Below are positions 4,423 to 43,288 of a stretch of DNA of 57,081 nt, piece by piece. Numbering within the stretch: position 1 is the stretch's first letter; each line of letters opens with the position of its first letter. The DNA is from Chloroflexota bacterium. GTDB taxonomy: Bacteria > Chloroflexota > Dehalococcoidia > DSTF01 > RBG-16-68-14. The DNA is taken from assembly GCA_022561355.1 (NCBI GenBank), contig JADFRJ010000001.1, forward strand, positions 1-57,081, given 5' to 3'. The translations under genes were made by a program, and so were the position numbers. The notes under the pieces were generated by a model, which saw only the letters and a program-made list of their open reading frames with translations, did no database searches and was not told where the DNA came from.

Positions 4423-4557
4423 CTGCCCATCCTCTCCTCAATCAGCATGCCTCTGCCCATCCACAGCGCGCAGCCATCCGGCTCGCTTTGACTAAGAGCG
4501 GGCCGCAGACGGCCTGCACCAAAGGGAGGGGGCCGCCTGCGGCCCAAGTGGCCACGC

Positions 4558-4627
4558 TGTTAAGTTTAGTTCCTGTGATGGAACGTCGCACGTGCCTTAA
4601 AGCCTCGAAAGGACGGGCCATTCGGCC
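4558..4627 (-). promoter_or_regulatory. candidate operator/promoter composite (Box1 GGGCCATTCGGCC at 4615-4627 plus a TAAACTTAAC-type box at 4558-4570), oriented toward the GMC gene
   Basis: Same box order and a shared CTTTAAGGC spacer as the inverted copy at 4860-4907. Box1 recurs in five other intergenic regions of the window. Confidence 0.35.
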
Positions 4628-4859
4628 ATAGTACACAGCGCGTAGTAGACGCAGGCTGGCCCGCACCACTCATCCACGCGCAGCGGCTTGCTCATGGTGG
4701 TTGAATGAACGCCGCCTGGTAGTAGTAGTCGCCGGCTCCCGAGTCTGTACGTCTAGCTGCCAAACATCAGACCACTCTCTGCGCCGCCATTCCGCGCCAC
4801 TTCTTTCACGGAGCCAGTCGCGCATGGTTCCCGCGGGAGGCCCTTCAACCCCCAATGAC

Positions 4860-4944: not shown

Positions 4945-6531
4945 GTGAGCGACGCCACATTCGATGCGGTCATCATCGGGGCAGGCCACAACGGGCTTTC
5001 GTTGGGCACGTACCTATCCAAGTGCGGCTGGGATGTAGCGATATTCGAGAAGCGCACTGAAGAGGGCGGCGGCCTCTGCACGGAAGAGCTGACGCGGCCC
5101 GGCTTCCTCCACAACGTTCACTGCAACTACCACACGCTGGTCGGCGTCTGTCCGGTGTACGAGGATCTGGATCTGTACGACCACGGCCTGGAATACGTGC
5201 GGCCGGAGGTGCAGATGGGAAGCGTCTTCAAGGACGGCACCGCGATCACCGTGCATACGGACATCGATAAGACGTGCGCTTCGTTCGCGCGATTCTCGGA
5301 GAAGGACGCGGAGACCTTCCGGCGGCTGCACGATGAGGTGAAGGGTTACCTGGACTTGATCCTGAGTACGTTGATGTACTCTCCGCCCATCCCGCTGGTC
5401 GATATCACGAAGGCGCTCGTCGTCTGGAAGATCACCGACAAGGCGGAGTTTCTGAGCGTCCATCTGCGGAACATGACGATCAACGAGTTCCTGGACGAGC
5501 ACTTCGAGAACGACAAGGTGAAGGCGATGCTGGCCTTTCAGGCGGCCATCTCCGGCTACGCGACGGACCTGAGGGGGCTCGCGGTGTCGTTCCCGCTGCT
5601 TGTGGGGAAGATGGACAACTGGCACGTCTGCATTGGCGGTTCTCATCAGCTCGCGCACTCCCTCTGGGAGGCGTTCGCGCATGCGGGCGGGAGCGTGTTC
5701 CTCAACACACCTGTCGCGGCGATTCTGACCGACAACGGCAAAGCGACAGGCGTGCGCCTCTTCGATGGGAGCGAAGTGAAGGCGCGGCACGTCGTCGCCA
5801 GCACGATCGATTTGGAGCAGACTTTCCTGAAGATGCTCCCGCGTGAGAAGTTGGACCCGGACCTGGTGAAGCATGTGGAGGAGTACTCGCACATGGACTG
5901 GTCCTACTACAGCGTGCATCTGGCGATGAGCGAAGCACCGCAGTACGAGGCGGCCTCGTTCGACCCTGACATCCAGCAAGCCTGGGTGCTCAACGCTGGC
6001 TATGAGTCGCTCAATGACCTGACCCAGGATTGGAAGACCGTCCGCGCGGGCAAGCTGGCCGATCCCAAGCCGAACTGCGCCGTGAACTCGCTCTTCGATC
6101 CAACCGATGCGCCCGATGGATCGTTTACGGGTCTCATGCGCCAGTTCGCCCCGATCGAGATCGGGAGCGGCGGTATGGAGGCGTGGGACGAGATGGCCGG
6201 CCCATACGGAGAGCGGTGCATAGACGCTTGGGCGTCTTACGCTCCCAACATCAGAGACGCAACGATCGAATGGCAGCCTTACACGCCGCTCGACATCTCG
6301 CGGCGGATGGTGAACATGGTCCGTGGCGACTGGATGGGCGGCATGATCGACTTGGACAACTTGCTCACGGAGCGGCCGACCCCAGAGCTTTCGCAGTACA
6401 AGACACCGTTCGAGGGTCTGTACTTGTGCGGGGCCACCCAGCATCCGCACGGCTTCATCACGTTCGCGCCGAGCTACAACGCGCTGCAAGTGATCGCAGC
6501 CGATCACGGATTGGATCGATGGTGGCAATGA
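4945..6531 (+). CDS. CrtI/phytoene-desaturase-like NAD(P)/FAD-dependent oxidoreductase (copy 1)
   Basis: N-terminal FDAVIIGAGHNGLSLGTYLSKCGWDVAIFEKRTEEGGG (GxGxxG followed by E..GG). 528 aa. Paralogous to 7048-8661 along its whole length. Confidence 0.85.
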   Translation: MSDATFDAVIIGAGHNGLSLGTYLSKCGWDVAIFEKRTEEGGGLCTEELTRPGFLHNVHCNYHTLVGVCPVYEDLDLYDHGLEYVRPEVQMGSVFKDGTAITVHTDIDKTCASFARFSEKDAETFRRLHDEVKGYLDLILSTLMYSPPIPLVDITKALVVWKITDKAEFLSVHLRNMTINEFLDEHFENDKVKAMLAFQAAISGYATDLRGLAVSFPLLVGKMDNWHVCIGGSHQLAHSLWEAFAHAGGSVFLNTPVAAILTDNGKATGVRLFDGSEVKARHVVASTIDLEQTFLKMLPREKLDPDLVKHVEEYSHMDWSYYSVHLAMSEAPQYEAASFDPDIQQAWVLNAGYESLNDLTQDWKTVRAGKLADPKPNCAVNSLFDPTDAPDGSFTGLMRQFAPIEIGSGGMEAWDEMAGPYGERCIDAWASYAPNIRDATIEWQPYTPLDISRRMVNMVRGDWMGGMIDLDNLLTERPTPELSQYKTPFEGLYLCGATQHPHGFITFAPSYNALQVIAADHGLDRWWQ

Positions 6532-7055
6532 CAGACTCCTTGTCCGCAAACGGGATCGTGCCGGTCAGGGCAGTGGCTGGCGATGAGGCTAGCGGACTGG
6601 CGAACATTATCGCCCAGTATCTGGAGCAGATATTGAACGAATCGGCGGAAAAATGCGCCGAGGCGTTATCGCTCCGAGGCCGGCTCGGCCTGCGTGCGCG
6701 GGAGGGCGACGTCGCCGTGACGATCGTATTCGATGGCGAAGACGTCGCGATCGAGGAGGGCCTGCAGGACCCGGATGCCGTAATCGGCGGAGATATCGAA
6801 TTTCTGATGCACATCATGGCTGGCAGGGCTAACCCGGCGTGGGAGATGCTCAGCCGCAACATAACGATCCAGCCGGGACGGCGGCCGCTGTTTGCCTATC
6901 AGGCCTACAGCCTGATGCGGCTGCCAGGTGTTCACGTATGGAACGGCATGCCGCGCCCGCCAACAGGCCTCCTGGTGGGCGCGGCAGCCGCGTTGGTGGC
7001 CGGGCTATCGATCAGGTATGCCCGGCGCAGAGAAGCAGGAGGTGAGGATGCCTGA
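6519..7055 (+). CDS. SCP2 (sterol carrier protein 2)-like domain protein with a C-terminal hydrophobic tail anchor
   Basis: I trimmed the 341-aa track ORF to the ATG at 6519 (an alternative ATG is at 6528), because the upstream part overlaps the FAD gene out of frame. SCP2-like core: VTIVFDGEDVAIEEGLQDPDAVIGGDIEFLMHIMAGRANPAWEMLSRNITIQ. The C-terminus GLLVGAAAALVAGLSIRYARRRE looks like a tail-anchor helix. Confidence 0.6.
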   Translation: MVAMTDSLSANGIVPVRAVAGDEASGLANIIAQYLEQILNESAEKCAEALSLRGRLGLRAREGDVAVTIVFDGEDVAIEEGLQDPDAVIGGDIEFLMHIMAGRANPAWEMLSRNITIQPGRRPLFAYQAYSLMRLPGVHVWNGMPRPPTGLLVGAAAALVAGLSIRYARRREAGGEDA

Positions 7056-8661
7056 GGCAACGTACGACGCGGTGATCATTGGCGCGGGCCACAACGGCCT
7101 CACCTTGGCTGCGTACCTCGCCAGGTCAGGATTGTCCGTTGGGATCTTCGAACGCCGTCACGAGGATGGTGGCGGCGTGAACACGGAAGAGGCGACCGTC
7201 CCCGGCTTCCACCACAACCTTCATGCCCAGTACATGGAGTTCATCGACTACATGCCGGTCTACCACGACTTCGAGTTGGAGAAGTGGGGCGCCCGGATGA
7301 TCTATCCGGACACGCAGTTGGGCATCACGTTCGCTGATGGCCGGCCGCCGATCGTCATCTACCGGCCCGACCCTGAGCTGGACAAGAAGACCCACAAGAG
7401 CATCTCCGAGTACTCCAGGCACGATGCGGATACATGGCTGGAGCTGAAAAACAAAGTGATGGCGAAAGAGCACCAGATGGCAGCGACGCTCTACAGTCCA
7501 GCGGAGGCCGAGGACAGCGCTGAGGCGTCGGCGGGCATGATGAGCGCGGGTCTCGATCTCTGGCAGGACCTAGGCCTCACGATGAACGACATCGGTAAGG
7601 CGCCGAAGGTGCTGATCGATCGCTTCTTCGAGTCGACCGAGTTGCGGGCGTTGCTGTACCGCCAGTGCATCGAGTGGGGGGCGAACGTGCACTCCGGCAA
7701 CGGATACGGGTTCCTGGTCTCTGTCCTCTGGCTGAGCGCGATCCACAGGATGGTCGTCGGCGGTACGCATTCGCTGGCACACGCCATGGCAAACGCCGCC
7801 ATGAAGGCGGGCGCGTGCATGCGCTTCACAAGCCCGGTGGTCAAGATCCTCCTGGACGACGGTCGCGCGACAGGCATCCAGCTCAAGGATGGCACGAAGA
7901 TCAAGGCGCGCAAGCTGGTCGCCTCGAACGTAGACCCCAAGCAAACGTTTGTGGACTTCATCGGCGAGGAGAACCTGGAGCCGTTCCGCAAGGAGCGGCT
8001 GGCCGGGTGGCACTTCGGTCCGGAGCACGTTCTGGGCACGCCGTCGTTCGCGCTTCACGAAGCGCCGGACTACAAGTCCGCGAAGTGGAACGAGGACATC
8101 AACCGCTGCTTCTACACCCTTGTGGGCTTTGAGTCGGCGGAGCAGATTTCCGATTACATCCTGCAGGCATACGGCGGTCAGATACCGGACCGGCCGGGCG
8201 CGGGCACGTGGGTGAACTCGCTCTGGGACCCCACGCAGGCGCCGGCGGGCAAGCACGCCATGAACGGCTGGTTCTTCTTCCCGAGGGCGTCTTGTCTCAG
8301 TGAAGAAGAGTGGGACGACATCCGTGCTACGTACAACGACAAGTTTCTGAAGCTCTGGGAGGAGTACGCGCCGAACATGACGCGGGACAACGTCATCGCG
8401 GACCGGCTGTACACGGCCTTCGACATCGAGAAGAAGATGGGGATGCCCGAGGGCGACTTCTCCCACGGCCGCTCGGGCGGTATCGGCGTCGGTATGCCGC
8501 GTGGATACCAGTACCGGACGGAGTTTCCGGGTCTGTACCTCTGCGGTGCTTCCGCCGGTGGCGGGGGCGTCAGTGCCGCTCCTGGCTACGGCTCATTCAA
8601 AGTGATCTGCAAAGACCTTGACCTGCCAAAGATCTGGAAGCGGGAATCGCGGGCCTATTAA
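7048..8661 (+). CDS. CrtI/phytoene-desaturase-like NAD(P)/FAD-dependent oxidoreductase (copy 2)
   Basis: The start was moved to the ATG at 7048, which follows AGGAGGTGAGG. N-terminal YDAVIIGAGHNGLTLAAYLARSGLSVGIFERRHEDGGG. Paralog of 4945-6531. Confidence 0.85.
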   Translation: MPEATYDAVIIGAGHNGLTLAAYLARSGLSVGIFERRHEDGGGVNTEEATVPGFHHNLHAQYMEFIDYMPVYHDFELEKWGARMIYPDTQLGITFADGRPPIVIYRPDPELDKKTHKSISEYSRHDADTWLELKNKVMAKEHQMAATLYSPAEAEDSAEASAGMMSAGLDLWQDLGLTMNDIGKAPKVLIDRFFESTELRALLYRQCIEWGANVHSGNGYGFLVSVLWLSAIHRMVVGGTHSLAHAMANAAMKAGACMRFTSPVVKILLDDGRATGIQLKDGTKIKARKLVASNVDPKQTFVDFIGEENLEPFRKERLAGWHFGPEHVLGTPSFALHEAPDYKSAKWNEDINRCFYTLVGFESAEQISDYILQAYGGQIPDRPGAGTWVNSLWDPTQAPAGKHAMNGWFFFPRASCLSEEEWDDIRATYNDKFLKLWEEYAPNMTRDNVIADRLYTAFDIEKKMGMPEGDFSHGRSGGIGVGMPRGYQYRTEFPGLYLCGASAGGGGVSAAPGYGSFKVICKDLDLPKIWKRESRAY

Positions 8662-8671
8662 GGAGTGCGCC

Positions 8672-9142
8672 ATGGCCGAGATCTACACGACCGCCTGGTA
8701 CGACAGCATGAAGGAGATCCTCAACGCGAGCGATGAGGTGACGAAGAGCGCGCCGAAAGGCATCTGGAACATTCTGGCGGAAATCCACGGCGACGGCACT
8801 TCCCCATACATCGCCGTTGATGACGTCAAACGCTTCGCGATCGTGCTCGATAACGGAAAATGCGAGAGCTATCAGGAGCTAACAGAGGCGCCGGCGCGGA
8901 AGGATTTCGAGTTCATCCTGGAGATGCCCGCCAGCCTCTTCGAGCGTGTCGTCGCCAACCAGGCCGACCCGCTTGAGGCCGGGCTCAAGGGCGACGTGAA
9001 GATCGTGGGCGACATGCGTGTGCTGATCCAGAACGCCGAACTGGTGAGCATTCTCGCGGACATCTACCAGCGCGAAATCGAGACGGAATGGCCTAACGGC
9101 GCCCCTCCATACGACGCGGCGCCGGCGGGAGGTGCCTCATGA
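8672..9142 (+). CDS. SCP2 sterol/lipid-binding domain protein (soluble)
   Basis: ATG at 8672 after AAGGAG. The SCP2 hallmark segment is DFEFILEMPASLFERVVANQADPLEAGLKGDVKIVGDMRVLIQ. The stop overlaps the A1 start (ATGA at 9139-9142). Confidence 0.7.
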   Translation: MAEIYTTAWYDSMKEILNASDEVTKSAPKGIWNILAEIHGDGTSPYIAVDDVKRFAIVLDNGKCESYQELTEAPARKDFEFILEMPASLFERVVANQADPLEAGLKGDVKIVGDMRVLIQNAELVSILADIYQREIETEWPNGAPPYDAAPAGGAS

Positions 9143-11919
9143 CGCAAGCAGCCCTTAGGCTGAGCGCTCTTGCGGAGAAGAAGGAGAAAGGCAGCCAGAC
9201 CTATGGCTCCTGGCAGGACATCTATCGCGAGAAGTGGACGTGGGATCGCGTCGTCAAAGGGACGTGCAACCGCGCCGACTGCATCGCTGCCTGCTCGCTA
9301 GACCTGTTCGTCAAGGATGGCATCGTCTGGCGGGAAGAGCAGAACGCTATCTTCGAGCAGACCAACGAGACGGTGCCGGACTTTAACCCGAGGGGCTGCC
9401 AGAAGGGCATCATTTACAGCGACCTGATGTACGACGCTTCCCGCATTAAGTACCCGCTGCGACGGGTCGGCGAGCGTGGCTCAGGCAAGTGGGAGCGGAT
9501 CTCCTGGGACGACGCCTTGACGGAGATCGCCGACAAGGTACTGGACGTCTGCAAGGAAGACGGCCCGGAGAGCGTCATCTACGACTTCGGGACCACGAAC
9601 ATCGACTTCGGACCCGGAACGCCTGCCGAGCAGCATCTCATTCGCCTAATCGGCACGACGTCGCTCGATGAGTGGGCCGGCGTTGGGGACCTGCCCATGG
9701 GCGCCATCCAGACGTGGGGGCTATTCACCGCCGATGGCACCTCCGACGATTGGTTCAACGCTGAGACGATTATCGTCTGGCTGGGCAATCCTGTCTACAC
9801 GCGAGTGCCGGACGTCCACTTCATGTTCGAGGCGCGCTACAACGGCGCTCGGGTCGTCACGATCGCGCCCGACTATAACGCCACGGTGGTGCACTCCGAT
9901 CTCTGGTTGAATCCGCGCGTCGGCACGGACGCCGCCCTGGCGCTCGCGATGTGCAACGTGATCGTGGAGGAGGGGCTGCAGAAGAAGCGCTACGTTCAGG
10001 AACAGACCGACCTGCCATTCCTGCTGCGCGAAGATACCGGCCGCTTCCTCCGTCAGTCTGACCTCGCCAAGGACGGCAAGGATGACATCTTCTACATCTG
10101 GGACCTAGCCACCAAGACGCTGCAAGAGGCGCCGGGGACGAATGGACAGCCGGAAGCGTCGATCGATCTGGGCGATCTCGATCCCGCGATGGAAGGCGAG
10201 TACGAGATAGAGCTGCTGGACGGCCGGAACGTGACCGTACGACCCGCCTTCATGGCGCTCAAGAAGCGGTTAGACGAATACACGCCGGAGCGGGCGGCCG
10301 AGATCACGGGAGTCGGCGCCGGCATGATCCGGCGTTTGGCCCGCCAGGTAGCCGAAAGTCCCGCCACGATGATCTTCTGCTCTTGGGGGTCCTGCAAGCA
10401 CTACCACATGGACTTGGTACAGCGATCCATCATTCTGCTGCTCGCGCTCACCGGCAACACCGGCAAGCGTGGCGCCGGCATGCGCATTGGCGCTTGGTGG
10501 AACATGTCCCTCAGCTACGACAAGGCAGGCGTCGGAGCGCTCGCGGCGGCCGGTGGTGACGCGGAGCGGCCTAAGGTCCGCGATGTTGAGAACATCATGA
10601 AGACGCTGATGAAGGCCAACTCTACGATCAGCCCAACGATGCCGTTTCTCTACAAGCACGACAAGGGCTACGCGAAGCTGGTCAACACGCCGGGGTATCA
10701 CGATCCCGATCTGAAGCGCCCCATCAGCGAGTACATGCAGGAGGCGTTCGACAAGGACTGGATGCCCGTCTACCCCAGGGACGGCAAGACGCCGCGCGTC
10801 TTCCTCTACACAGGCATGAACCCGCTGCGGCGCTGGCCGGCGCCCGACGTCATCCGCGAGAACCTGTGGGCAAATTTTGAGCTGATCGTGACGTGGGAGT
10901 TTCGCATGTCCAGCTCCGCCATGTACTCGGACATTATCTTGCCCGCGGCGGGATGGCACGAGAAGTCCGGCATTAAATTCTGCCAGAGCTACGTGCCGTA
11001 CATCTGTGTCGGTGAACAGGCCGTGGAGCCGCTCTACGAGTCGAAAAACGAGTTCGACATCATGGCCAACTTGGCCGAGACGCTCGAACGGCGGGCAAAG
11101 GAGCGGGAGGAGGCGCCGTACAAGGATGCCTTCGGCAACGAGCACGATCCGCGCGAGATCTTCCGGCTCTGGAGTTTTGACGGTGAGTTCGGCGAAGGCG
11201 ATGCTGAGAAGGCGCTGAGCGTCCAGTTCGAACTTTCGGACCCGGTTGGAGATGCCACGTGGGAAGAGGCGGCTCAGAAGGGGGCCGTGCCCGTTAAGTC
11301 GACCGGAGGCTACGGGCCGATCACCGCCATCACGAACGATTTCAAGGAAGGTGAGACGCTCTATCCGTTCGCGTGGTTCGTTGAGGGCAAGGAGTCTTGG
11401 CCAACGCTCACCGGTCGCCAGCAGTTCTACATCGATCATCCATGGTTCCTGGAGGCCGGCGAAGAGCTGCCGACGCACAAGGAGCCTCCTCCCGCCGGCG
11501 GCGACTACCCACTGCGTATGACAGGTGGACATACGCGATGGAGCATCCACTCCATCTGGAGGAGCAACCGCACGCTCCTGCGGCTCCAGCGCGGAGGTCC
11601 CGTGATGTACATCAGCACACAGGACGCGAAGGAGCGCGGCCTGAAAGACCACGATGAGGCGCGGGTCCGGAATGACGTAGGCGAGTTTAAGGTCAGGGTC
11701 AAGCTGGCGCCCAGCGTTCAGCCCGGCCAGGTGGTGATGTATCACGCCTGGGAGCCCTACCAGTTCGAGCAGTGGTCCAGCCAACAGGCTGTGAACCCCT
11801 CGCCGTTGAACCCGCTTCACCTAGTGGGCGACTACGTCCAGCTCCAGTACCGCTTTGCGCTCGCCCAGCCCAGCAATATCTCCCGGGCGATGACCGTAGA
11901 GCTGACGAAAGTGACGTGA
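9139..11919 (+). CDS. type II DMSO-reductase-family Mo-bisPGD catalytic alpha subunit A1 (NarG/EbdA-like, no signal peptide)
   Basis: 926 aa. N-terminal Fe-S (FS0) region GTCNRADCIAACSLDLFVKDGIVWREEQ...NPRGCQKG. NarG-like GDLPMGAIQTWG segment. C-terminal FYIDHPWFLEAGEELPTHKE. GGGAGGTG RBS. The maximal ORF contains no RR motif. Confidence 0.9.
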   Translation: MTQAALRLSALAEKKEKGSQTYGSWQDIYREKWTWDRVVKGTCNRADCIAACSLDLFVKDGIVWREEQNAIFEQTNETVPDFNPRGCQKGIIYSDLMYDASRIKYPLRRVGERGSGKWERISWDDALTEIADKVLDVCKEDGPESVIYDFGTTNIDFGPGTPAEQHLIRLIGTTSLDEWAGVGDLPMGAIQTWGLFTADGTSDDWFNAETIIVWLGNPVYTRVPDVHFMFEARYNGARVVTIAPDYNATVVHSDLWLNPRVGTDAALALAMCNVIVEEGLQKKRYVQEQTDLPFLLREDTGRFLRQSDLAKDGKDDIFYIWDLATKTLQEAPGTNGQPEASIDLGDLDPAMEGEYEIELLDGRNVTVRPAFMALKKRLDEYTPERAAEITGVGAGMIRRLARQVAESPATMIFCSWGSCKHYHMDLVQRSIILLLALTGNTGKRGAGMRIGAWWNMSLSYDKAGVGALAAAGGDAERPKVRDVENIMKTLMKANSTISPTMPFLYKHDKGYAKLVNTPGYHDPDLKRPISEYMQEAFDKDWMPVYPRDGKTPRVFLYTGMNPLRRWPAPDVIRENLWANFELIVTWEFRMSSSAMYSDIILPAAGWHEKSGIKFCQSYVPYICVGEQAVEPLYESKNEFDIMANLAETLERRAKEREEAPYKDAFGNEHDPREIFRLWSFDGEFGEGDAEKALSVQFELSDPVGDATWEEAAQKGAVPVKSTGGYGPITAITNDFKEGETLYPFAWFVEGKESWPTLTGRQQFYIDHPWFLEAGEELPTHKEPPPAGGDYPLRMTGGHTRWSIHSIWRSNRTLLRLQRGGPVMYISTQDAKERGLKDHDEARVRNDVGEFKVRVKLAPSVQPGQVVMYHAWEPYQFEQWSSQQAVNPSPLNPLHLVGDYVQLQYRFALAQPSNISRAMTVELTKVT

Positions 11920-11935
11920 GAAACGAGGTGCAGTG

Positions 11936-12586
11936 ATGCGTGTAGGCCGAGTGGACGCGAAAGACGAGGAGTTGCTGAGCCCTGACTCGAAGGCTTGGCA
12001 AGAAGCCCCGGTCAACGAGGTCGTGCTGTCGCCGGCGCCGCTCGAAATGCAGCCGACTGAGTACATCCGTGTTGCTCGAAACGGCCGTCCATACGGCGTC
12101 CTTTCGAGCATGAAGGTGAGCGCCTTGCACAACGGCGACAGTGTATTCTTCCACTTGATCTGGCAGGACGGCTCTGAAGACGGACCGATCAAAGACATCA
12201 ACCAGTTCGCCGATGCCGCGGCCGTGATGTTCCCGATGGTCGAGGATGCGCCGCTCATTGGCATGGGAATCAAAGGCAAGCCAGTGAACGTATGGCTGTG
12301 GCGCGCTGACTGGGAGCGGCCGAAAAACGTCGCCGCGGAAGGGATGGGGACGACGGTGCGCCGGGACGATCCGGCACTCTCGTCGGCCGCGCGGCACGCC
12401 AATGGACAATGGGACCTGATCGTCGCTCGATCGCTGAACGGAAAGCGCGCGCCTCAGGGAACCGTCGCGCTGGCGCCCGGAACGGTAACGAAGATCGCAT
12501 TCGCCGTCTGGCAGGGCTCCGAGCAGGAGCGCGCCGGCCTGAAGGCGTTCTCTCCCGACTGGCAAGAGCTAGAGCTTGATGCGTAG
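11936..12586 (+). CDS. EbdC-like heme-b gamma subunit of a type II DMSO-reductase enzyme, lacking a signal peptide
   Basis: Shares the MG...PVN(V/I)W.W(R/K)A and FAVW.G...ER.G.K..S motifs with the gamma at 44049-45041. The ATG at 11936 lies 5 nt after GAGGTG; a GTG at 11933 is also possible. There is no hydrophobic N-terminus. Confidence 0.75.
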   Translation: MRVGRVDAKDEELLSPDSKAWQEAPVNEVVLSPAPLEMQPTEYIRVARNGRPYGVLSSMKVSALHNGDSVFFHLIWQDGSEDGPIKDINQFADAAAVMFPMVEDAPLIGMGIKGKPVNVWLWRADWERPKNVAAEGMGTTVRRDDPALSSAARHANGQWDLIVARSLNGKRAPQGTVALAPGTVTKIAFAVWQGSEQERAGLKAFSPDWQELELDA

Positions 12587-12604
12587 CGGAAAGTAGGACC
12601 CGCC

Positions 12605-13657
12605 ATGAGTGAACGACAACTCGCGTTTGTCTTCGACCTCAACAAGTGTTTGGGCTGCCAGACGTGCACCATTTCGTGCAAGACGCTCTGGACGGACCAG
12701 CCGGGCATGGAATACATGTGGTGGAACATCGTCAATACGATGCCCGGCCGGGGCACGCCGCGCGATCGGGACGAGATGGGCGGCGGCTTCGATGCTGAAG
12801 GGCGCGCGCGGGCCGGCGTGCTGCCGAGCGCAAAGGACTTCGGAGAAGCTTGGGATTTCAACTACGAAGAGGTCTTCTACGAAGGGAAGGGCCAATCGGC
12901 ATACCTCCACCCGCGCAACCCAAGCGCGGACGGCAAGGACGAAGCTCCGGAGTGGGGGCCGAACTGGGACGAGGACCAGGGCGCGGGCGAATACCCCAAT
13001 AGCTACTACTTCTACCTGCCCACGATCTGCATGCACTGCACGGAGCCGGCCTGCCTGGCCGCCTGTCCTCGAACGGCGATCTCCAAGCGCGAAGAGGACG
13101 GCATCGTCCTCATCGATGAGGACCGCTGCGATGGCTATCGCTTCTGCATGGAGGCCTGTCCGTACAAGCGCATCTATTTCAACCCGGACCGCTTCATCTC
13201 ACAGAAGTGTGTCATGTGCTTCGCGAGGCTGGAGGAGGGCGTCGCGCCCGCTTGCGTTCGCCAGTGTCCTGGGCGCGTTCGCCACTTCGGCTATCTGGAC
13301 GACGAGGAGAACGACGTCTTCAAGCTCGTTAAGACCTGGAAAGTGGCGATCCCATTGCACCCCGAATTCGGCACAGAGCCCAACGTGTACTACGTGCCGC
13401 CGCTCGCGCCACCACGCTTCGACGAGAACGGGGAGATCGATGAAGAGAATCCTCGCATCCCCATGGAGTACCTGCGCTCGCTCTTCGGCCCGGCGGTGGA
13501 TCAAGCGCTCGCGACGCTCAAGCTGGAGATGGAGAAGACGCGGCAGGGAGGGAAGTCTGAGCTGATGGACATTCTGATCGCCTACAAGTGGCAGAACATG
13601 TTCATTCCGTTCGTGGAGGACCCGGGAGAATTGAGCCGCCCGGCGCCGAAGTCATGA
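12605..13657 (+). CDS. four-cluster Fe-S beta subunit (NarH/EbdB-like) B1
   Basis: Cys clusters CLGCQTCTISCK, CMHCTEPACLAACP, CDGYRFCMEACP and CVMCFARLEEGVAPACVRQCP. 350 aa. Paralog of 24825-25853. Confidence 0.9.
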   Translation: MSERQLAFVFDLNKCLGCQTCTISCKTLWTDQPGMEYMWWNIVNTMPGRGTPRDRDEMGGGFDAEGRARAGVLPSAKDFGEAWDFNYEEVFYEGKGQSAYLHPRNPSADGKDEAPEWGPNWDEDQGAGEYPNSYYFYLPTICMHCTEPACLAACPRTAISKREEDGIVLIDEDRCDGYRFCMEACPYKRIYFNPDRFISQKCVMCFARLEEGVAPACVRQCPGRVRHFGYLDDEENDVFKLVKTWKVAIPLHPEFGTEPNVYYVPPLAPPRFDENGEIDEENPRIPMEYLRSLFGPAVDQALATLKLEMEKTRQGGKSELMDILIAYKWQNMFIPFVEDPGELSRPAPKS

Positions 13658-14334
13658 TGCGTATCGAGGCGCTCGACACGCCGGAGGGAATCGCGGCGGC
13701 TGGCCACAGCCGTCTCTATCGGCTGCTTGCGGACGGGTTCTCCTACCCGGACGGCGAATCGTTCGACGCGCTCAAGACGGGCGAGTTTCGTAACTACGCG
13801 ATGGCAACGTGCGGGGACTTGCCGTACGACCTGGAGCCCGTCTTCGATGGGCTGGTCGCGTCGGGCACGTACACCGACTTCCAGGCTGAGTACCTGCGCA
13901 TCTTTGAGGTGGGTCTTGGTGTGCCCCCGTGTCCGCTCTACAGCGGGCTCTTCCGGGGTGGGCGAAAGGCTGTGATGGAGGAGCTGGCGCGGTTCTATAG
14001 CTATTTCGGGTTGTCGATTGAACACGGCTCCGGAGAACTGCCCGACCACATCACTACTGAGTTGGAGTTCATGCACTTCCTGGCGTTCAAGGAGTTGGCC
14101 GCGCTCGATCAGCAGAAGGACCCGGAGCCGTACCGGCGTGCCCAGGCGGACTTCCTGGAGCGCCAGCTCACGAACTGGCTGCCCGATCTGGAGAAGCGCT
14201 TGCAAGGCCTGGAACCGCCGCCGTTCTACGCGGCGTTGGCTTGGCTGACGAACACCGCGGCGCGCGCTCACCTCGCCGCGCTCGATGGATCGCTCGATCG
14301 TAACGTCTCGATTTCATTGGAGCAGGTGCGATGA
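13654..14334 (+). CDS. NarJ/TorD-family delta chaperone D1
   Basis: The ATG at 13654 overlaps the beta stop (ATGA). The segments AEYLRIFEVG...PLYSG and LPDHITTELEFMHFLAFKE are shared with the delta at 43289-44071 (PDHISIELEFMHLVTCKE). Confidence 0.8.
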   Translation: MMRIEALDTPEGIAAAGHSRLYRLLADGFSYPDGESFDALKTGEFRNYAMATCGDLPYDLEPVFDGLVASGTYTDFQAEYLRIFEVGLGVPPCPLYSGLFRGGRKAVMEELARFYSYFGLSIEHGSGELPDHITTELEFMHFLAFKELAALDQQKDPEPYRRAQADFLERQLTNWLPDLEKRLQGLEPPPFYAALAWLTNTAARAHLAALDGSLDRNVSISLEQVR

Positions 14335-15455
14335 TCCCGGCAATCTGCGTCGTTGGGCGAAAGAACAGCGGCAAGACCATGCTCATTGAGCGGCTCCTGC
14401 CGGAGCTGCTGGCGCGCGGCCGCAAGGTGGCCACGATCAAGCACGATGCCCACGATTTCGAGATCGACCTGCCGGGGAAGGATACGTGGCGCCACCGCCA
14501 GGCCGGCAGCACGACCACGATCATCTCATCCTCATCGAAGCTCGCCATGGTGCGCCTCACAGATGGCGATTCGCCGCTGGATGACTTGCTGCGCATGGTG
14601 GACCGGTCATACGACCTCGTCCTTATCGAAGGTCTGCGGCGCAGTGCGTGTCCGAAGATCCTTGTGCACCGGCCTGAGGTCGGCGATCCGCCGGGCGTTC
14701 TTGGTGACATCTGGGCCGTCGTCGGCACGCAGATGCCGGACATCGATGGTAATCCGCCGTGCATTCGGCCGGAGAACGTCGGCGCGCTCGCTGACCTCAT
14801 CGAAGAGCGGCTGCTGGGCGGGCCGGTGCAGACGCCGGCCTGGAACCTGCCAGCGCTGCTGGCCGAAGCGGGCCGCCACCACGGCCACATCTGTCCCGGA
14901 CAGGTGCTGGGAGTGCGGATGGCGATCCTGGGATGCGAACGGTTGGGGATCTACGACCCGAAGTCATCGAAGCGCCTGATCACATTTGTTGAAACCGATC
15001 GATGCGGGACGGACGCGGTGCAAACCGTGACGGGATGCACGCTTGGCAAACGGACGTTGAAGTTCGTCGACTACGGCAAGCTTGCCGCCACGTTCCTCGA
15101 TATGGACACGGGCCGCGCTGTGCGCATCGCCGCCAGGGAGAGCGCGCGCGACGCCGCGCTGCGGTTCGCGCCGGATGAGGCGGACGCGCATGCCGCGCAG
15201 TTGCGAGCGTACAAGGCGCTGCCCGCGGACGACCTGTTTAGCGTTCGGGAGGTGCGGGCCACGTTGGCTGAGGCGGAGCTGCCTGGCCGGTCGCGCGCGC
15301 GCGTCGTCTGCACAGCGTGCGGCGAGGGAGTCAGCAACGGCCGCGAGCTGTCAGTCGCGGGAAGAACGGTGTGCCGCGCATGCGCCGGCGTTCCGTACTA
15401 CGACGAAGTCGAAGCTGCAGTCGGAGTTCAAGAGCATCAGGATGGAACTCTCTAG
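14331..15455 (+). CDS. MobB (MGD biosynthesis adapter, P-loop) fused to an FmdE/FwdE-like domain with a C-terminal zinc ribbon
   Basis: The N-terminal part has the P-loop VVGRKNSGKT, IKHDAHDFEIDLPGKDTWRH and LVLIEG. The C-terminal part has HGHICPGQVLGVRMA, ETDRCGTDAVQTVTGCTLGKR and CTACGEG...VCRAC. ATGA overlap with the delta gene. Confidence 0.8.
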   Translation: MIPAICVVGRKNSGKTMLIERLLPELLARGRKVATIKHDAHDFEIDLPGKDTWRHRQAGSTTTIISSSSKLAMVRLTDGDSPLDDLLRMVDRSYDLVLIEGLRRSACPKILVHRPEVGDPPGVLGDIWAVVGTQMPDIDGNPPCIRPENVGALADLIEERLLGGPVQTPAWNLPALLAEAGRHHGHICPGQVLGVRMAILGCERLGIYDPKSSKRLITFVETDRCGTDAVQTVTGCTLGKRTLKFVDYGKLAATFLDMDTGRAVRIAARESARDAALRFAPDEADAHAAQLRAYKALPADDLFSVREVRATLAEAELPGRSRARVVCTACGEGVSNGRELSVAGRTVCRACAGVPYYDEVEAAVGVQEHQDGTL

Positions 15456-15472
15456 GCAAATGGAGGCACATC

Positions 15473-18325
15473 ATGGCCCGCAAAAGCGCATTTGAGAAGG
15501 CAGAAGGCACCGCCGAACGCTATCGGAATCGCTGGCGCTGGGATTCGGTGACCTGGGGCAGCCACTGCGTCGACTGCTATCCCAGCAACTGCCCGCACCG
15601 GGTGTTCGTGCGCGACGGCAAGGTGGTGCGCGAAGAGCAGGCCGGGACATTCCCCGTCATCGAGCAGGGCGTGCCGGATATGAACCCGGCCGGCTGCCAG
15701 AAAGGCGCGATGTGGAGCCAGATGCTCGACGGCGAAGACCGCGTGATCTACCCGATGAAGCGGGTAGGGGAGCGAGGCTCCGGCAAATGGGAGCGCGTAT
15801 CTTGGGATGATGCGCTGACAGACATCGCCGACAAGACGATCGACGCTATCCAGGAGTATGGCTCGGAGTCCCTGGTACGCATCGGCGAGCCGGCCGAAGG
15901 CGGCACCCAGGTGCTGGTCTGCGCGAGCATGCTGGTGAACGTGCTCGGCGGGATCACCACCGACGTGCAGGCCGAGATCAACGACTTCAGCCCCGGCCTC
16001 TACATTACGTATGGCAAGTTCGACCCGGCCGCCAGCGTTGACGACTGGTTCCACTCGGAGCTGATACTCATCTGGCACTGCAACCCGGTCTACACGAACA
16101 TCCCCTGGTACCACTACGTCGCGGAGGCTCGCTACAACGGCGGTGAAGTGGTGCTCTTCGCGCCGGACTACAGCCCGTCCGCGCTCCATACGGACGTGTT
16201 CGCGTCCGTGCGTCCGGGGACCGACGCGGCGCTCGCGCTTGGCATGTGCCAGATCTTAATCGCAGAGGGGCTCTATCACGACGACTTCGTGAAGGAGCAG
16301 ACAGACCTGCCCTTGCTGGTGCGAACGGATAACCGCCACTTCCTGCGCGCGAGCGATGTCGATGGCGGCCGGGACGATCAGTTCTACTGGTACGACAAGG
16401 TGACGAAGAGCGTCGTCGAGGCGCCTCGCGGGACGCTCGCATTAGGCGACGTGAATCCGGCGCTCTCCGGCGAATTTGAGGCGACGCTCGCGGATGGCTC
16501 GAAGGTTGGCGTGACGCCGGTCTTCGCGCTGCTCCGCGAAACGCTCGACCGCGACTACACGCCGGAGAAGGCTTCGGAGATCTGCGGCGTGCATCCGGAC
16601 GTGATGCGCCGCGTGGCGCGCACGGCAGCTCGCAAGCGCACACGGCTGCTCATGGGCTGGAACTCCGGCAAGTACTACCACGGCGACCTCATGGAACGGA
16701 CGATGGCGCTCTTCCTGGGGCTGACCGGCAACTGGGGCCGCAAGGGTACCGGCGCCCGGTCGTGGGCCGTGGGCTGGTACGAGGGGATGTTCGCGCCGCT
16801 GGCGAAGGCGAAGCCGGGCCGCCAGGCCGCTCGAGACATGCAGAAGATGCAGAAGCAGTTCCTGGCTGCCATGAAGGCGGAAGACCCCACCATGACCGAC
16901 GAGATCGCTGTGGTGGAGCAGGAGTATCGCAACGCGCGCATGGGCGGCATGGTGCCGGCGGTGTTCTTCTGGTACTACCACTGCGGCTTCCGGGAGCGAT
17001 GGAACAAGGCGGAGTGGAACGACCCCACCATGAAGCGCACCTTCGACGAGTACATTGAGGAGGGCATCGAAAAGGGCTGGTGGGAGGGCTTCCGCACGCC
17101 GGACGAAAAGACACCCCCACAGGTGATCTTCGAGATCGGCAGCAACGTCCTGCGACGCACGCGAGGCGGCCAAGAACTGTTGTTGAAGGAGTTGTGGCCT
17201 AACACGAAGCTGATCGTCACGTGGGACTGGCGGATCAGCACCACCGGACTCTGCTCGGACTACATCCTGCCGGCGGCGCAACACTACGAGAAGACGAACT
17301 TCTGCTACCAGACGCCACACATCATGAACCTGACGTTCTCGGATAAGGCCGTCGAGCCGCCGGGCGAGGCGAAGTCGGAATGGCAGATCACGCTTGCCTT
17401 GGCGAAGAAGATCGAGGAGCGCGCGAAGGCGCGCGGCTTCACGGAATACGAGACTCGCGGCATCACGCGCCGTCTCGATAATCTCTACAACGATCTGAGC
17501 AAGGACGGCGCGTACGCGGAAGATGAGCGTTTGATGGACGAGATGGTGCGGGATAGCGCCACGTTCGGCGTGCTGCCCAAAGGGACGAACCTCGCGACGA
17601 TGCGAGAGAAGGGATTCGTGCGCTTCACGGACTGGGGCGTTAGTTCGATGACGCTCGCCCAGGCTTCTGAGCTGAAGCCCGACGAGGCCCACGCCCCGTT
17701 CCGTAACCACACGGAGAAGAAGGAGCCGTTCCCGACACTGACGCGCCGCGCGCAGTTCTACATCGACCACGACTGGTTCCTGGAGGCCGGCGAAGAGCTG
17801 CCCGTGCACAAGGAGACACCGATGCAGGGTGGCGACTATCCACTCCTGCTCACGTCGGGCCACCCGAGGCACAGCATCCATTCGATGAACATGACGAGCA
17901 AGCTGATCCTGCAGACGCACCGTGGCCACCCTTCGATGTTCATCAGTCCAGAGGACGCCAAGGCGCGCAAGATCAAGAACAACGAAACAGTGCGGATGTA
18001 CAACGACGTGTCGTCGATCATCATCGACACGAAGGTCTCGGCGCTGGTGAGGCCGGGCCAGGTGATCGTCTATAACGGCTGGGAGCCGTACCAGTTCAAG
18101 GACTGGAAGGGCAGCGAGAACGTGGAGCCGGGCATGGTCAAATGGCTTCACCTGGCTGGAGGCTACGGCCATCTCCGGTATCGCAGTCTCCACTGGCAGC
18201 CCGTGCCGATCGACAGGGCGATCCATGTGGACGTAGAGAAAGTGAAGCCGAAACGCATTGCCAAGGCGAAGGCAGGCGCCAAGCGATCTGGGAGTAGGAA
18301 GCGGAAGACGCTTGCGCGTGCATAA
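15473..18325 (+). CDS. type II DMSO-reductase-family alpha subunit A2 (no signal peptide, basic C-terminal tail)
   Basis: ATG at 15473 after GGAGGCACATC; the track ORF's upstream extension overlaps the MobB-FmdE gene. Motifs: GSHCVDCYPSNCPHRVFVRDGKVVREEQ, NPAGCQKG, NDFSPGLYITYGKF and KWLHLAGGYGHLRYR. The tail is KVKPKRIAKAKAGAKRSGSRKRKTLARA. Confidence 0.9.
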   Translation: MARKSAFEKAEGTAERYRNRWRWDSVTWGSHCVDCYPSNCPHRVFVRDGKVVREEQAGTFPVIEQGVPDMNPAGCQKGAMWSQMLDGEDRVIYPMKRVGERGSGKWERVSWDDALTDIADKTIDAIQEYGSESLVRIGEPAEGGTQVLVCASMLVNVLGGITTDVQAEINDFSPGLYITYGKFDPAASVDDWFHSELILIWHCNPVYTNIPWYHYVAEARYNGGEVVLFAPDYSPSALHTDVFASVRPGTDAALALGMCQILIAEGLYHDDFVKEQTDLPLLVRTDNRHFLRASDVDGGRDDQFYWYDKVTKSVVEAPRGTLALGDVNPALSGEFEATLADGSKVGVTPVFALLRETLDRDYTPEKASEICGVHPDVMRRVARTAARKRTRLLMGWNSGKYYHGDLMERTMALFLGLTGNWGRKGTGARSWAVGWYEGMFAPLAKAKPGRQAARDMQKMQKQFLAAMKAEDPTMTDEIAVVEQEYRNARMGGMVPAVFFWYYHCGFRERWNKAEWNDPTMKRTFDEYIEEGIEKGWWEGFRTPDEKTPPQVIFEIGSNVLRRTRGGQELLLKELWPNTKLIVTWDWRISTTGLCSDYILPAAQHYEKTNFCYQTPHIMNLTFSDKAVEPPGEAKSEWQITLALAKKIEERAKARGFTEYETRGITRRLDNLYNDLSKDGAYAEDERLMDEMVRDSATFGVLPKGTNLATMREKGFVRFTDWGVSSMTLAQASELKPDEAHAPFRNHTEKKEPFPTLTRRAQFYIDHDWFLEAGEELPVHKETPMQGGDYPLLLTSGHPRHSIHSMNMTSKLILQTHRGHPSMFISPEDAKARKIKNNETVRMYNDVSSIIIDTKVSALVRPGQVIVYNGWEPYQFKDWKGSENVEPGMVKWLHLAGGYGHLRYRSLHWQPVPIDRAIHVDVEKVKPKRIAKAKAGAKRSGSRKRKTLARA

Positions 18326-18462
18326 GGAAGAGATGGAGAAGAAAGAACGCGGCGAGCGATCGCAGGTGGTCGGTTCGCGGACTGTACGGAACGGGGACGA
18401 GCCGCTGGGTTGTTGGATGGGTGACCTGGCCACCATTCACTGGCGCTAGCTGCCCGGATCGA

Positions 18463-18476
18463 AGCGGACGTCCGCT
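18463..18476. promoter_or_regulatory. perfect 14-nt palindrome AGCGGACGTCCGCT, 32 nt upstream of the A3 start
   Basis: Read directly from the sequence. It lies in the 182-nt A2-A3 spacer, next to GGCGCTAGC and CAGCGCTAGAGGAGG segments that resemble Box2. Confidence 0.25.
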
Positions 18477-18507
18477 CGCCGGGAGCCTCAGCGCTAGAGG
18501 AGGCGTG

Positions 18508-18657
18508 ATGGCATCTAGGCAAGAGCGGCCGCAGGCGAACGATCCAGGAGACGTGGCGCTCCCACTGCTCGGCCAGCCTGTCACCCGGAGAGGCTTCCTG
18601 AAGGGCGCTTCCGCGGGAGCGGCCGCCCTCTACCTCACGCAGCTCGGTTGCAGCGGC
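18508..18657 (+). other. Tat (twin-arginine) signal region of A3
   Basis: An n-region of about 25 aa is followed by T-R-R-G-F-L-K and an Ala-rich h-region. Confidence 0.75.
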
Positions 18658-24824: not shown

Positions 24825-25853
24825 CTAGTCCCAGACGATGTTAGCGGGGTCGCGGTTCAGGTGGCCCAGCGCTTCGTTCCAGTGGTACATGATCAGCGCG
24901 TCCATCAGCTCAGAGTCGTCACCGCGGCGTTTCTTCTCCAGTTCCACCTTGATCGTATCGAGCGCGCCGTGGACCTGAGGGCCGAAGAGCGACTCCAGGT
25001 ACTCCGGCGGGATGCGTTGCTCTGACTCGTTCAGCGAGCCGTCTTCGTTGATCGGCGCGGGGCTCAGCGGCGGTATGTAGTAGACGTTCGGCTTGGTCTC
25101 AAACTCGGGGTGCAGCGGGAGCGCCACCTCCCACTTGTTGACGAACTTGGAAACCGCACCAGTCTCATCATCCAGAAACCCGATCCACGCGGCCCGGCCC
25201 GGGCATTGGCGCACACAGGCCGGCGCCACGCCTTGCTCGATGCGCGGGAAGCAGCCAATGCATTGCTGGCTGACGTTGCGCTCTGGGTTAAAGTAGATCT
25301 TTTTGTAGGGGCAGGCGGCGGAGCATAGCTGGGCGCCCTTGCAGAGGTCCTCATCCCGCAGCACCAGGCCTTCATCCGTCTTAAAGAGCGCGTCGTTTGG
25401 ACAGGCCTCCAGGCAGCCCGGTTGCGTGCAGTGGTTGCAGAGGCGGGGAAGGTAGAAGAAGTAGGAGTTGGGGAACTCGCCCGCGCCTTCATCCTCGTCC
25501 CAGTTCATGCCCCAGTTCTTGTGGCCCGCGATCTTCTCCAGGTGGACCGCGCGTCCTTTGCCGCCGCGGAGTACCTCGTCGTAGTTGTAGTCCCAGCCGC
25601 CTCCGAAGTCCTCGGGTGTGGGCAGTTTGCCGGGCGTTTGCTTCCCATCCTTATAGCCGCCGCCCATCTCCTCCCAAGCCTTGGGCGTCCCGAGGCCGGG
25701 CTTGGTGTTGACTGTCATCCACCACATCGGTTCCTCGCCCTTTTCCTGGGTCCAGAGGACCTTACAGGCGACCGAGCAGGTCTGGCAGCCGATGCATTTG
25801 TTGAGGTCGAAGACCCACGCAAGCTGTCGTTTGGACTGTGTGATAGTACCCAT
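24825..25853 (-). CDS. four-cluster Fe-S beta subunit B4 (NarH/EbdB-like)
   Basis: Cys clusters CIGCQTCSVACK, CNHCTQPGCLEACP, CKGAQLCSAACP and CIGCFPRIEQGVAPACVRQCP. 342 aa. Collinear with B1. Confidence 0.9.
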   Translation of the reverse strand: MGTITQSKRQLAWVFDLNKCIGCQTCSVACKVLWTQEKGEEPMWWMTVNTKPGLGTPKAWEEMGGGYKDGKQTPGKLPTPEDFGGGWDYNYDEVLRGGKGRAVHLEKIAGHKNWGMNWDEDEGAGEFPNSYFFYLPRLCNHCTQPGCLEACPNDALFKTDEGLVLRDEDLCKGAQLCSAACPYKKIYFNPERNVSQQCIGCFPRIEQGVAPACVRQCPGRAAWIGFLDDETGAVSKFVNKWEVALPLHPEFETKPNVYYIPPLSPAPINEDGSLNESEQRIPPEYLESLFGPQVHGALDTIKVELEKKRRGDDSELMDALIMYHWNEALGHLNRDPANIVWD

Positions 25854-25909
25854 CTAACTAACCTCGATCCCATCTGCTTTGGATAGGCGGAGCGATGCTG
25901 CTGTGCAGC

Positions 25910-43273: not shown

Positions 43274-43288
43274 ATCGGAGGACGGGCG

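Follow-up and report, generated by a model that had tools for sequence, protein, structure and literature searches.

A probable molybdenum hydroxylase module of the ethylbenzene dehydrogenase type in Chloroflexota, with no export signal on its catalytic subunit

The window analysed here is a 57,081-nucleotide (nt) stretch of a Chloroflexota bacterium (GTDB lineage Bacteria; Chloroflexota; Dehalococcoidia; DSTF01; RBG-16-68-14), positions 1 to 57,081 of the forward strand of contig JADFRJ010000001.1 in assembly GCA_022561355.1. The nearest related genome was Chloroflexota OFTM331, and further close relatives are labelled Dehalococcoidia. Positions 4945-22934 of the plus strand form one tightly packed operon encoding, in this order, the flavoprotein FAD1, an SCP2-like protein, the flavoprotein FAD2, a second SCP2 protein, the catalytic (alpha) subunit A1, gamma-1, beta-1, delta-1, a MobB-FmdE fusion, the alphas A2 and A3, and a 475-amino-acid (aa) membrane protein. 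Judged from the coordinates of the open reading frames (ORFs), the junctions are overlaps of 1-13 nt or gaps of at most 18 nt, the sole exception being the 182 nt ahead of A3. The subject of the analysis is the module resembling ethylbenzene dehydrogenase (EBDH), which has the order alpha-gamma-beta-delta and junctions of +16, +18 and -4 nt, together with the gene directly upstream of it:

8672-9142, plus strand: SCP2 sterol/lipid-carrier-like protein, 156 aa (Pfam SCP2, E 6e-06), kept upstream of A1 orthologues
9139-11919, plus strand: A1, Mo-bisPGD (molybdenum-bis(pyranopterin guanine dinucleotide)) catalytic subunit of dimethyl sulfoxide (DMSO) reductase type II, without a twin-arginine translocation (Tat) signal (PF00384, PF01568, TIGR03479)
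11936-12586, plus strand: gamma-1, EbdC-type heme-b subunit, leaderless (EB_dh Pfam, TIGR03477, match to 2IVF_C)
12605-13657, plus strand: beta-1, iron-sulfur subunit with four cysteine groups in its translation (TIGR03478, Fer4_11 Pfam)
13654-14334, plus strand: delta-1, NarJ/EbdD-type assembly chaperone, 226 aa (TIGR03482, Nitrate_red_del Pfam), overlapping the beta-1 stop by 4 nt

The start codon of A1, ATG at 9139, has a Shine-Dalgarno sequence GGGAGG 7-12 nt upstream and overlaps the SCP2 stop codon by 4 nt (ATGA), and SCP2 (8672-9142) is predicted to be translationally coupled to A1. Four other alphas of the window were compared with A1:

15473-18325, plus strand: A2, second Tat-less alpha, 950 aa, in the same operon as A1 (TIGR03479 from profile position 47), member of a large Tat-less clade
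18508-21507, plus strand: A3, Tat-bearing alpha, 999 aa, in the same operon as A1 (TRRGFLKGASAGAAALYLTQLGC; TIGR03479 from position 1), member of a Tat-positive clade
25910-28696, minus strand: A4, Tat-less alpha (TIGR03479 from position 43), with a stop codon directly upstream, followed by beta-4 (24825-25853) and no gamma
35231-38020, plus strand: A5, Tat-less alpha standing alone (TIGR03479 from position 43), with a stop 9 codons upstream

A sequence-only reading of this DNA had described the module as lacking any export signal, with no room for an N-terminal extension in the maximal ORFs of A1 and gamma-1, and the stop codons bear this out. The closest in-frame stop upstream of A1 is TAA at 9094-9096, and the 14 intervening codons include no ATG, GTG or TTG. 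Gamma-1 starts at GTG 11933 or ATG 11936, six codons downstream of an in-frame TGA at 11912-11914. Leaders were sought with a rule-based test (not TatP or SignalP) which measured the longest uncharged run between the upstream stop and residue +70; the hydrophobic (h-) region of a Tat or Sec signal needs about 13 residues or more. The longest run was 9 aa in A1, 8 in gamma-1, 12 in beta-1 and 8 in delta-1, and none of the four has a twin-arginine (RR) motif, so that the claimed absence of an RR motif and a hydrophobic leader from A1 and gamma-1 was upheld. Also A4 and A5 proved signal-less as claimed, with runs of 9 aa each and upstream stops at 28697-28699, immediately ahead of A4, and nine codons ahead of A5. 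The true start of A2 is ATG 15473; the possible extension in its maximal ORF overlaps the MobB-FmdE gene, as had been said, and holds RR pairs and no h-region (longest run 8 aa). All partners encoded upstream of A1 in the operon were leaderless by the same test.

Positive controls from the same window were A3 (TRRGFLKGASAGAAALYLTQLGC) and A6 (SRRTFLKLAGGATAAGVALGSPAVLAL), the Tat signals of which are canonical, and the membrane-anchored gamma-6. The alignment to TIGR03479 begins at profile position 1 in A3 and at positions 35, 47, 43 and 43 in A1, A2, A4 and A5, respectively. The check for alternative or non-canonical upstream starts of A1 found none that could supply a Tat leader. The ATA codon at 9109-9111 was rejected as a start: the resulting peptide has an RR and no uncharged stretch of at least 13 residues, and the codon is further disfavoured by its position inside the SCP2 gene and the A1 ribosome-binding site.

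The distribution of the missing signal was surveyed over 5.8 billion proteins, scoring full-length clusters of A1 homologues for a Tat signal. It was missing in all 46 of the 46 full-length clusters at least 60% identical to A1, and therefore its absence from A1 is not due to chance or to a miscalled start. Clusters at most 59% identical to A1 were nearly all Tat-positive. The deeper A1-type members carry a vestigial LRRLAP or LRRLAS with no hydrophobic core, A1 itself reads ALRLSAL, and a further Tat-less group (P0372, P0375, P0376 and P0385) keeps PLRRLAPLD; from these sequences, the A1 lineage looks like a stepwise decay of the Tat signal into a remnant.

The Tat-less sequences fell into two clades of a neighbour-joining tree built from 90 alphas. 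The first consists of A1 and ten other genes (11 genomic A1-type alphas), all from Chloroflexota, and is embedded in a group of Tat-positive alphas from Myxococcota, Deltaproteobacteria, Gammaproteobacteria and Methylomirabilia. The second is larger, including A2, A4, A5, many other Chloroflexota genes and three myxococcotal or deltaproteobacterial genes, and is sister to the Tat-positive clade of A3. Among the nearest full-length representatives of 50%-identity clusters, 9 of 33 were Tat-less. Two of these nine (P0131 and P0147) have a NarJ-like delta domain fused to the alpha N-terminus and no twin-arginine leader, which makes export by a Tat signal of their own unlikely; P0131 shares 38% identity with delta-1 over its residues 13-209 (E 2e-32). 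The same signal-less alpha-gamma-beta-delta synteny, when sought in related genomes, was found in the close relatives L003, L004 and L006 and in the independent lineage L086. Non-exported type II alphas of the EBDH branch, to which also steroid C-25 dehydrogenase (S25DH) belongs, are thus predicted to be widespread in sequence data, and the signal-less topology, described earlier as unusual, turned out not to be so.

All characterised members of the EBDH/S25DH group are treated as periplasmic (PMC10100899, PMC8840923, PMC7411048) and their electron acceptor as cytochrome c (PMC8840923, PMC7411048, PMC10100899). A full-text search of the literature found no description of a Tat-less or cytoplasmic EBDH/S25DH-type enzyme and no text naming ethylbenzene dehydrogenase together with SAR202 or Dehalococcoidia; some queries were broad and noisy, and an earlier mention of either is possible. 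AhyABC of Desulfococcus oleovorans was considered as a known cytoplasmic case, and the literature found on it gives no localisation.

A1 has the domains expected of a Mo-bisPGD subunit (PF00384, 9.6e-41; PF01568, 3e-19). It scored 956.8 bits with TIGR03479, below the curated cutoff of 984.75, as did A2, A4 and A5 by slight margins, A3 reaching 1005.3 bits; the shortfall of A1 fits the missing signal region, its alignment starting only at position 35. The solved structures matched by A1 were PcrA (2.3e-175) and EbdA (1.7e-172). Asp184 of A1, within GVGDLP, aligns with Asp170 of PcrA, which we take to be the molybdenum ligand. An aspartate ligand is reported as universally conserved in the type II family (PMC8840923). 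With the EbdA equivalog model NF042978, A1 scored 629 bits against a cutoff of 2000 and is thus not an EBDH orthologue; with the narG model it scored 320 bits.

The motif of the FS0 iron-sulfur cluster in A1 is C43-x4-C48-x3-C52 (residues 43-52, window positions 9265-9294). Cys43 stands at the position of a histidine in the Tat-positive relatives (KGTCNRADCIAAC versus KGTH.RANCIAAC), and this replacement was found in A1 and in all 46 Tat-less clusters of its clade, the change of FS0 ligand and the loss of the Tat signal thus coinciding. A histidine and three cysteines at FS0 have been called conserved across subfamily II (PMC8840923), and also anammox nitrite oxidoreductase (NXR) has a cysteine as the first FS0 ligand (PMC8387239). 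A1 is predicted to keep the cluster site with a variant set of ligands in place of the histidine plus three cysteines.

Gamma-1 scored above the cutoff of TIGR03477 (174.8 versus 169.85; residues 3-214) and matched PF09459 with 6e-29. It covers positions 1-211 of the 214 positions of the NCBIfam EbdC equivalog model, starting from its own residue 1, and residues 2-211 of 214 of the deposited EbdC chain 2IVF_C (E 1.6e-35). Met111 and Lys204 of gamma-1 (numbered from the GTG) align with Met108 and Lys201 of EbdC, presumably its heme ligands, so that the alignment proposed as a check confirmed both residues. The two columns were invariant in 22 of 22 gamma homologues of 37-82% identity. Heme b of EBDH is ligated by methionine and lysine (PMC8840923). 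The AlphaFold2 model of gamma-1 had a pLDDT of 90.5, with residues 2-5 lying in a strand and the N-terminal strand having a pLDDT of 97, and was superposed on 2IVF_C by Foldseek with template modelling (TM) scores of 0.87/0.88, a root-mean-square deviation of 2.5 Å and E 1.4e-20. From alignment and model, gamma-1 is predicted to be a complete EbdC-type protein which binds heme b. Beta-1 and delta-1 likewise scored above their cutoffs (TIGR03478, 516.1 versus 480.7; TIGR03482, 168.9 versus 152.3).

The gamma survey covered 120 homologue clusters and 80 genomic loci from many phyla, with 112 alphas in those loci. The gamma homologues start at the same mature N-terminus and are leaderless in a plausible reading, and 65 of the 112 alphas carry a canonical Tat signal, as counted by a regular-expression screen corrected by eye (false negatives L043_6913 and L069_13573; false positive L035_13973). 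The screen of the A1 homologue clusters was corrected in the same way (false negatives P0359, P0367, P0378 and P0384; false positives P0308 and P0314). A leaderless gamma is thus predicted to be the norm in the EBDH/S25DH branch, leaving the cell together with a Tat-bearing alpha. Since leaderless gammas occur also beside exported alphas, the absence of a leader from gamma says nothing of location, and the informative feature is that alpha has lost its Tat signal. A Sec signal on EbdC-type gammas, the premise of the earlier reading, does not hold for the EBDH/S25DH branch, as shown by the 214-position model matched from position 1 and by the leaderless gammas of the 80 loci. Neither did the gene order prove unusual: gamma-beta holds in nearly all of the 80 loci and has been published for the S25DH genes as gamma3-beta3 (PMC6016249).

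In the Tat-less alpha-gamma-beta-delta lineage L086, the gamma (4031-4693) keeps the methionine, has an alanine at the lysine ligand (ERAGLAS versus ERAGLKA) and is without the conserved ALHNG histidine. Its heme ligation may be different or lost.

The gene context of A1 is formed by the following further members of the operon:

4945-6531, plus strand: FAD1, leaderless flavoprotein of the type of CtmAB (limonene dehydrogenase) and delta-24-steroid desaturase (Pfam Amino_oxidase, DAO, NAD_binding_8; Rossmann motif from residue 7)
6519-7055, plus strand: small SCP2-like protein of 178 aa (weak match to Pfam SCP2 on a longer ORF; gene call in L001 and L083), overlapping the FAD1 stop by 13 nt and lying between the two flavoprotein genes
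7048-8661, plus strand: FAD2, second flavoprotein subunit of the CtmAB/delta-24-desaturase type, 537 aa, leaderless (Pfam; motif GFHHNLHA; start MPEATYDAVIIGAGHNG)
14331-15455, plus strand: MobB-FmdE-zinc-finger fusion (Pfam MobB, FmdE, zf-dskA_traR)

The consensus for covalent binding of flavin mononucleotide (FMN) in CtmAB and delta-24-steroid desaturase is G-F-L/R-x-N/S-T/L-H-A (PMC11061730). The flavinylated histidine is present in both proteins, with two deviations in FAD1 (GFLHNVHC; V for T/L and C for A) and one in FAD2 (GFHHNLHA; H for L/R). FAD1 also gave a weak PDB match to CrtI-type desaturases. As two adjacent paralogous subunits with the covalent-FMN motif, FAD1 and FAD2 agree in sequence with the CtmAB/delta-24-desaturase pattern. 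An SCP2-like carrier gene comes after each of the two flavoprotein genes (4945-9142), and only one such gene separates FAD1 from FAD2. The flavoprotein/SCP2 set lies upstream of A1 orthologues in L003, L004, L006 and L083, and in L007 directly upstream of gamma-beta-delta, A1 being absent. In Sterolibacterium, the product of the delta-24 desaturase is hydroxylated by the molybdenum-dependent steroid C-26 dehydrogenase (S26DH; PMC11061730). Elsewhere, A1-type alphas have genes for thiolase, DUF35, acyl-coenzyme A (CoA) dehydrogenase, MaoC hydratase and CoA-transferase as neighbours, that is, cytoplasmic CoA chemistry. The Tat-positive P0332, 55% identical to A1, is labelled 'steroid C-25 hydroxylase alpha subunit' by its source database, and this label and the gene context are what suggest a kinship of A1 with S25DH and S26DH. 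From the gene context alone we infer a water-dependent hydroxylation of an isoprenoid or sterol-type side chain feeding beta-oxidation.

The MobB-FmdE fusion with its DksA/TraR-type zinc finger adjoins gamma, beta and delta genes in 17 Chloroflexota loci and is probably an accessory of cofactor insertion. In L084, a separate FmdE gene and a MobA-like gene lie on either side of a lone A1-type alpha.

ORF clustering over 23 Chloroflexota loci and the window, in which a conserved electron acceptor was sought, found none, shadow ORFs in the high-GC DNA making the clusters noisy; only alpha, beta, gamma, delta, MobB-FmdE, flavoproteins and SCP2 recurred. The acceptor question raised earlier for a cytoplasmic complex is a real one.

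A1, gamma-1, beta-1 and delta-1 are likely to form an S25DH/EBDH-type molybdenum hydroxylase that stays in the cytoplasm. The cytoplasmic location of A1 is most likely, being the most economical reading of its sequence, and the enzyme is most likely a Tat-less variant of the S25DH/EBDH-type hydroxylases, uncharacterised as far as found, conserved and widespread in metagenomes. Of the earlier interpretation, the truly Tat-less alpha and the probable cytoplasmic location stood, and the Sec-gamma premise, the unusual gene order and the rarity did not. Assembly of alpha, beta and the heme-b gamma would always be cytoplasmic and assisted by the NarJ-like delta chaperone, and a Tat peptide on alpha alone would decide the export of the finished complex, because gamma has no signal in the EBDH/S25DH branch and because leaderless gammas adjoin Tat-positive alphas in many phyla. 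In the Chloroflexota-restricted A1 lineage this Tat peptide appears to have decayed, and the remaining approximately 20 N-terminal residues of A1 probably dock delta-1 in the way the NarG remnant docks NarJ. The probable reaction of the enzyme is the hydroxylation, with water and not O2, of a side chain of isoprenoid or sterol type at an allylic or tertiary carbon; the two flavoproteins of the CtmAB/delta-24-desaturase type would prepare the substrate and the two SCP2 carriers would pass it on. Electrons would pass from molybdenum through FS0 and the beta clusters to heme b, and the final acceptor might be a membrane partner facing the cytoplasm or a soluble carrier of high potential, for which the Rieske ferredoxin at 31231-31542 is a candidate.

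The main rival reading has gamma-1, beta-1 and delta-1 serving mainly the exported A3, with A1 working in the cytoplasm without a heme subunit, as alpha-beta or alone, so that no cytoplasmic EbdC complex exists. Several observations speak for it and at the same time weigh against a cytoplasmic heme-b hydroxylase: L007 keeps SCP2-gamma-beta-delta without any A1, the pairing of A1 with gamma-1 being only predicted; the A1-type alpha of L084 stands alone, with no beta or gamma within 9 kb; and gamma-1 is the only soluble gamma in the window for five alphas, one of which (A3) is exported. Also A4 and its myxococcotal relatives are alpha-beta pairs with no gamma, and there are Dehalococcoidia loci in which two gamma-beta-delta sets precede a Tat-less alpha and a Tat-positive one. 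On the other hand, a gap of 16 nt separates A1 from gamma-1 within one operon, the order alpha-gamma-beta-delta is kept in L003, L004 and L006, and in L086 the Tat-less alpha overlaps the gamma start by 4 nt on a 12-kb contig with no Tat-positive alpha; in solved relatives, the FS4 cluster of beta hands electrons to the gamma heme. The rival is accordingly held to be rather unlikely. Weighing further against the cytoplasmic heme-b hydroxylase are the Met/Lys heme b, which is of high potential (+254 mV in EBDH) with cytochrome c as its acceptor (PMC8840923); the lack of an obvious conserved cytoplasmic electron partner in the ORF clustering; the localisation of A1, deduced by a rule-based sequence test; and the substrate, assigned from gene context only, the identity to characterised enzymes being moderate, as seen in the EbdA model score.

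Export of A1-beta-gamma by piggy-backing on a Tat-bearing partner such as A3, within a higher-order complex, would agree with the presence of A3 in the same operon, with the beta and gamma of Tat-positive relatives leaving the cell by hitch-hiking, and with the higher-order assemblies of the related NXR (PMC8387239). It is nevertheless very improbable, as the EBDH and S25DH that have been characterised are reported to be complexes of alpha, beta and gamma (PMC8840923, PMC6016249), the Tat-less state is stable across the 46 clusters with the motif decaying progressively, A1-type genes are found far from any Tat-positive alpha, and the neighbouring pathway enzymes are all leaderless and use CoA esters. 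Hardly better is the case for a cytoplasmic oxyanion reductase (of, e.g., chlorate, perchlorate, selenate or nitrate) instead of a hydrocarbon or sterol hydroxylase. PcrA was the top PDB match of A1, although narrowly ahead of EbdA, and the type II family contains reductases and hydroxylases alike; the operon partners are, however, CtmAB/delta-24-desaturase-type flavoproteins and SCP2 lipid carriers, A1-type genes occur in beta-oxidation contexts, P0332 bears its steroid hydroxylase label, and no chlorite dismutase or oxyanion transport genes were found in the window. An artefact, with a true Tat leader masked by a wrongly called start, by a frameshift or by an error of assembly, is effectively refuted. 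The gamma gene is broken in L001, a public assembly of the same population, but the break is a 100-N scaffold gap with no deletion; the in-frame stop lies 14 codons upstream of A1, with the 3' end of the SCP2 gene in between; two other assemblies encode exactly the same A1 protein, and the A1 DNA and that of L001 disagree at 3 of 2781 bases; and most of the closest clusters have a length of 922-927 aa in independent gene calls.

A periplasmic enzyme forces the steroid substrate to shuttle between periplasmic and cytoplasmic steps (PMC7411048). If the cytoplasmic hydroxylase is real, abundant uncultured Chloroflexota would perform oxygen-independent C-H hydroxylation directly in the cytoplasm, beside flavin desaturases, SCP2 carriers and CoA-dependent beta-oxidation. 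The bioenergetic question would then be by what a Met/Lys heme b is re-oxidised within the cell and whether energy is conserved; the module is of interest mainly for this acceptor question and for its connection with the catabolism of isoprenoids or sterols in Chloroflexota. Leaderless enzymes may also be easier to express for selective hydroxylations, e.g. chemistry of the 25-hydroxyvitamin D3 type, and the A1 lineage would offer a natural series in which a Tat signal decays by degrees into what is probably a remnant for chaperone docking. A wider and doubtful possibility is that Chloroflexota and some other phyla run a class of cytoplasmic heme-b molybdenum hydroxylases which attack isoprenoid or sterol side chains with water in place of O2 and pass electrons of high potential to a cytoplasmic or inner-face acceptor, the same leaderless beta/gamma module serving an alpha inside the cell (A1, A2) as well as an exported one with a possible lipid anchor (A3), and thus both sides of the membrane.

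Among known systems, S25DH1-4 and S26DH1-3 of Sterolibacterium denitrificans resemble the A1 module in having a type II alpha, a beta, an EbdC-type heme-b gamma and a delta chaperone. The S25DH genes share with the window the gamma-beta order and the several paralogous alphas served by few beta/gamma sets (PMC6016249), and both steroid dehydrogenases are functionally linked to a two-subunit covalent-FMN delta-24 desaturase (PMC11061730), the motif of which is found in FAD1 and FAD2. Their alphas carry Tat signals and were on that basis placed in the periplasm (PMC7411048), whereas A1 has none; A1 has Cys43 where subfamily II normally has the FS0 histidine; and the host is a denitrifying betaproteobacterium, that of A1 a Chloroflexota metagenome-assembled genome. 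EbdABCD (2IVF), the genes of which are ordered alpha-beta-gamma-delta, is similar in the full-length match of gamma-1 to EbdC with Met and Lys aligned, in the leaderless state of both gammas, and in beta-1 and delta-1 exceeding the type II family cutoffs. It differs in that EbdA is Tat-exported and the enzyme, a soluble one of the periplasm, passes its electrons to cytochrome c (PMC8840923).

NarGHJI shares with A1 a type II alpha with an aspartate molybdenum ligand that stays cytoplasmic, and a NarJ-type delta. The remnant Tat signal of NarG is reported to bind the NarJ chaperone (PMC10609526, citing Ize et al. 2009), and this remnant resembles the decayed twin-arginine N-terminus of the A1 lineage. 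NarGH, however, docks on the membrane di-heme NarI and receives electrons from quinol, whereas the A1 operon has a soluble EbdC-type gamma and no NarI, and the similarity of A1 to NarG is much lower, as its narG model score indicates. PcrAB (4YDD) includes the best-scoring solved structure, with Asp170 of PcrA opposite Asp184 of A1, but PcrA was deposited with PcrB only, without an EbdC-type gamma, and is a periplasmic reducer of oxyanions, while the gene context of A1 is that of lipid or isoprenoid catabolism.

Of the other genes in the window, A3 has a Tat signal ending in LTQLGC, which is lipobox-like, and a cysteine right after the h-region was seen also in many Tat-positive homologues. 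A3 is followed with a 1-nt overlap by the gene of the 475-aa polytopic membrane protein, which has no Pfam match (18508-22934 with A3) and is kept after A3-type alphas. In L031 (13977-15785) the counterpart of this membrane protein is fused to a Rieske domain. The small soluble Rieske-type [2Fe-2S] ferredoxin gene of the window (31231-31542) adjoins a cytochrome P450 gene, the two covering 31231-32814 on the minus strand, and the ferredoxin is 37% identical to the Rieske domain of the L031 fusion.

A4 and beta-4 (24825-28696, minus strand) form a Tat-less alpha-beta pair without gamma, an arrangement found also in the Myxococcota locus L055 (4278-8135), and an EbdC subunit may be dispensable in this clade. 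Next to A4/beta-4 there are two radical SAM/SPASM genes (28792-31211, minus strand). The first is close to AhbC/NirJ1 (573 bits, under the cutoff of 650) and the second exceeds the cutoff of TIGR04053 and is related to the heme b synthase AhbD, which hints at siroheme-dependent heme synthesis.

The Tat-bearing NXR/pNar-like set at 38505-45041 stands apart and consists of an alpha of 1158 aa, a beta, a delta and a membrane-anchored gamma, the last with a signal-like hydrophobic segment at its N-terminus and a hydrophobic tail at its C-terminus. It is followed by a 344-aa polytopic membrane protein without a Pfam match, the whole stretch covering 38505-46087. The luciferase-like monooxygenase gene at 34161-35088 (minus strand) appears to be frameshifted: only the first 186 profile positions match, and the product has an arginine-rich tail after approximately 180 residues.

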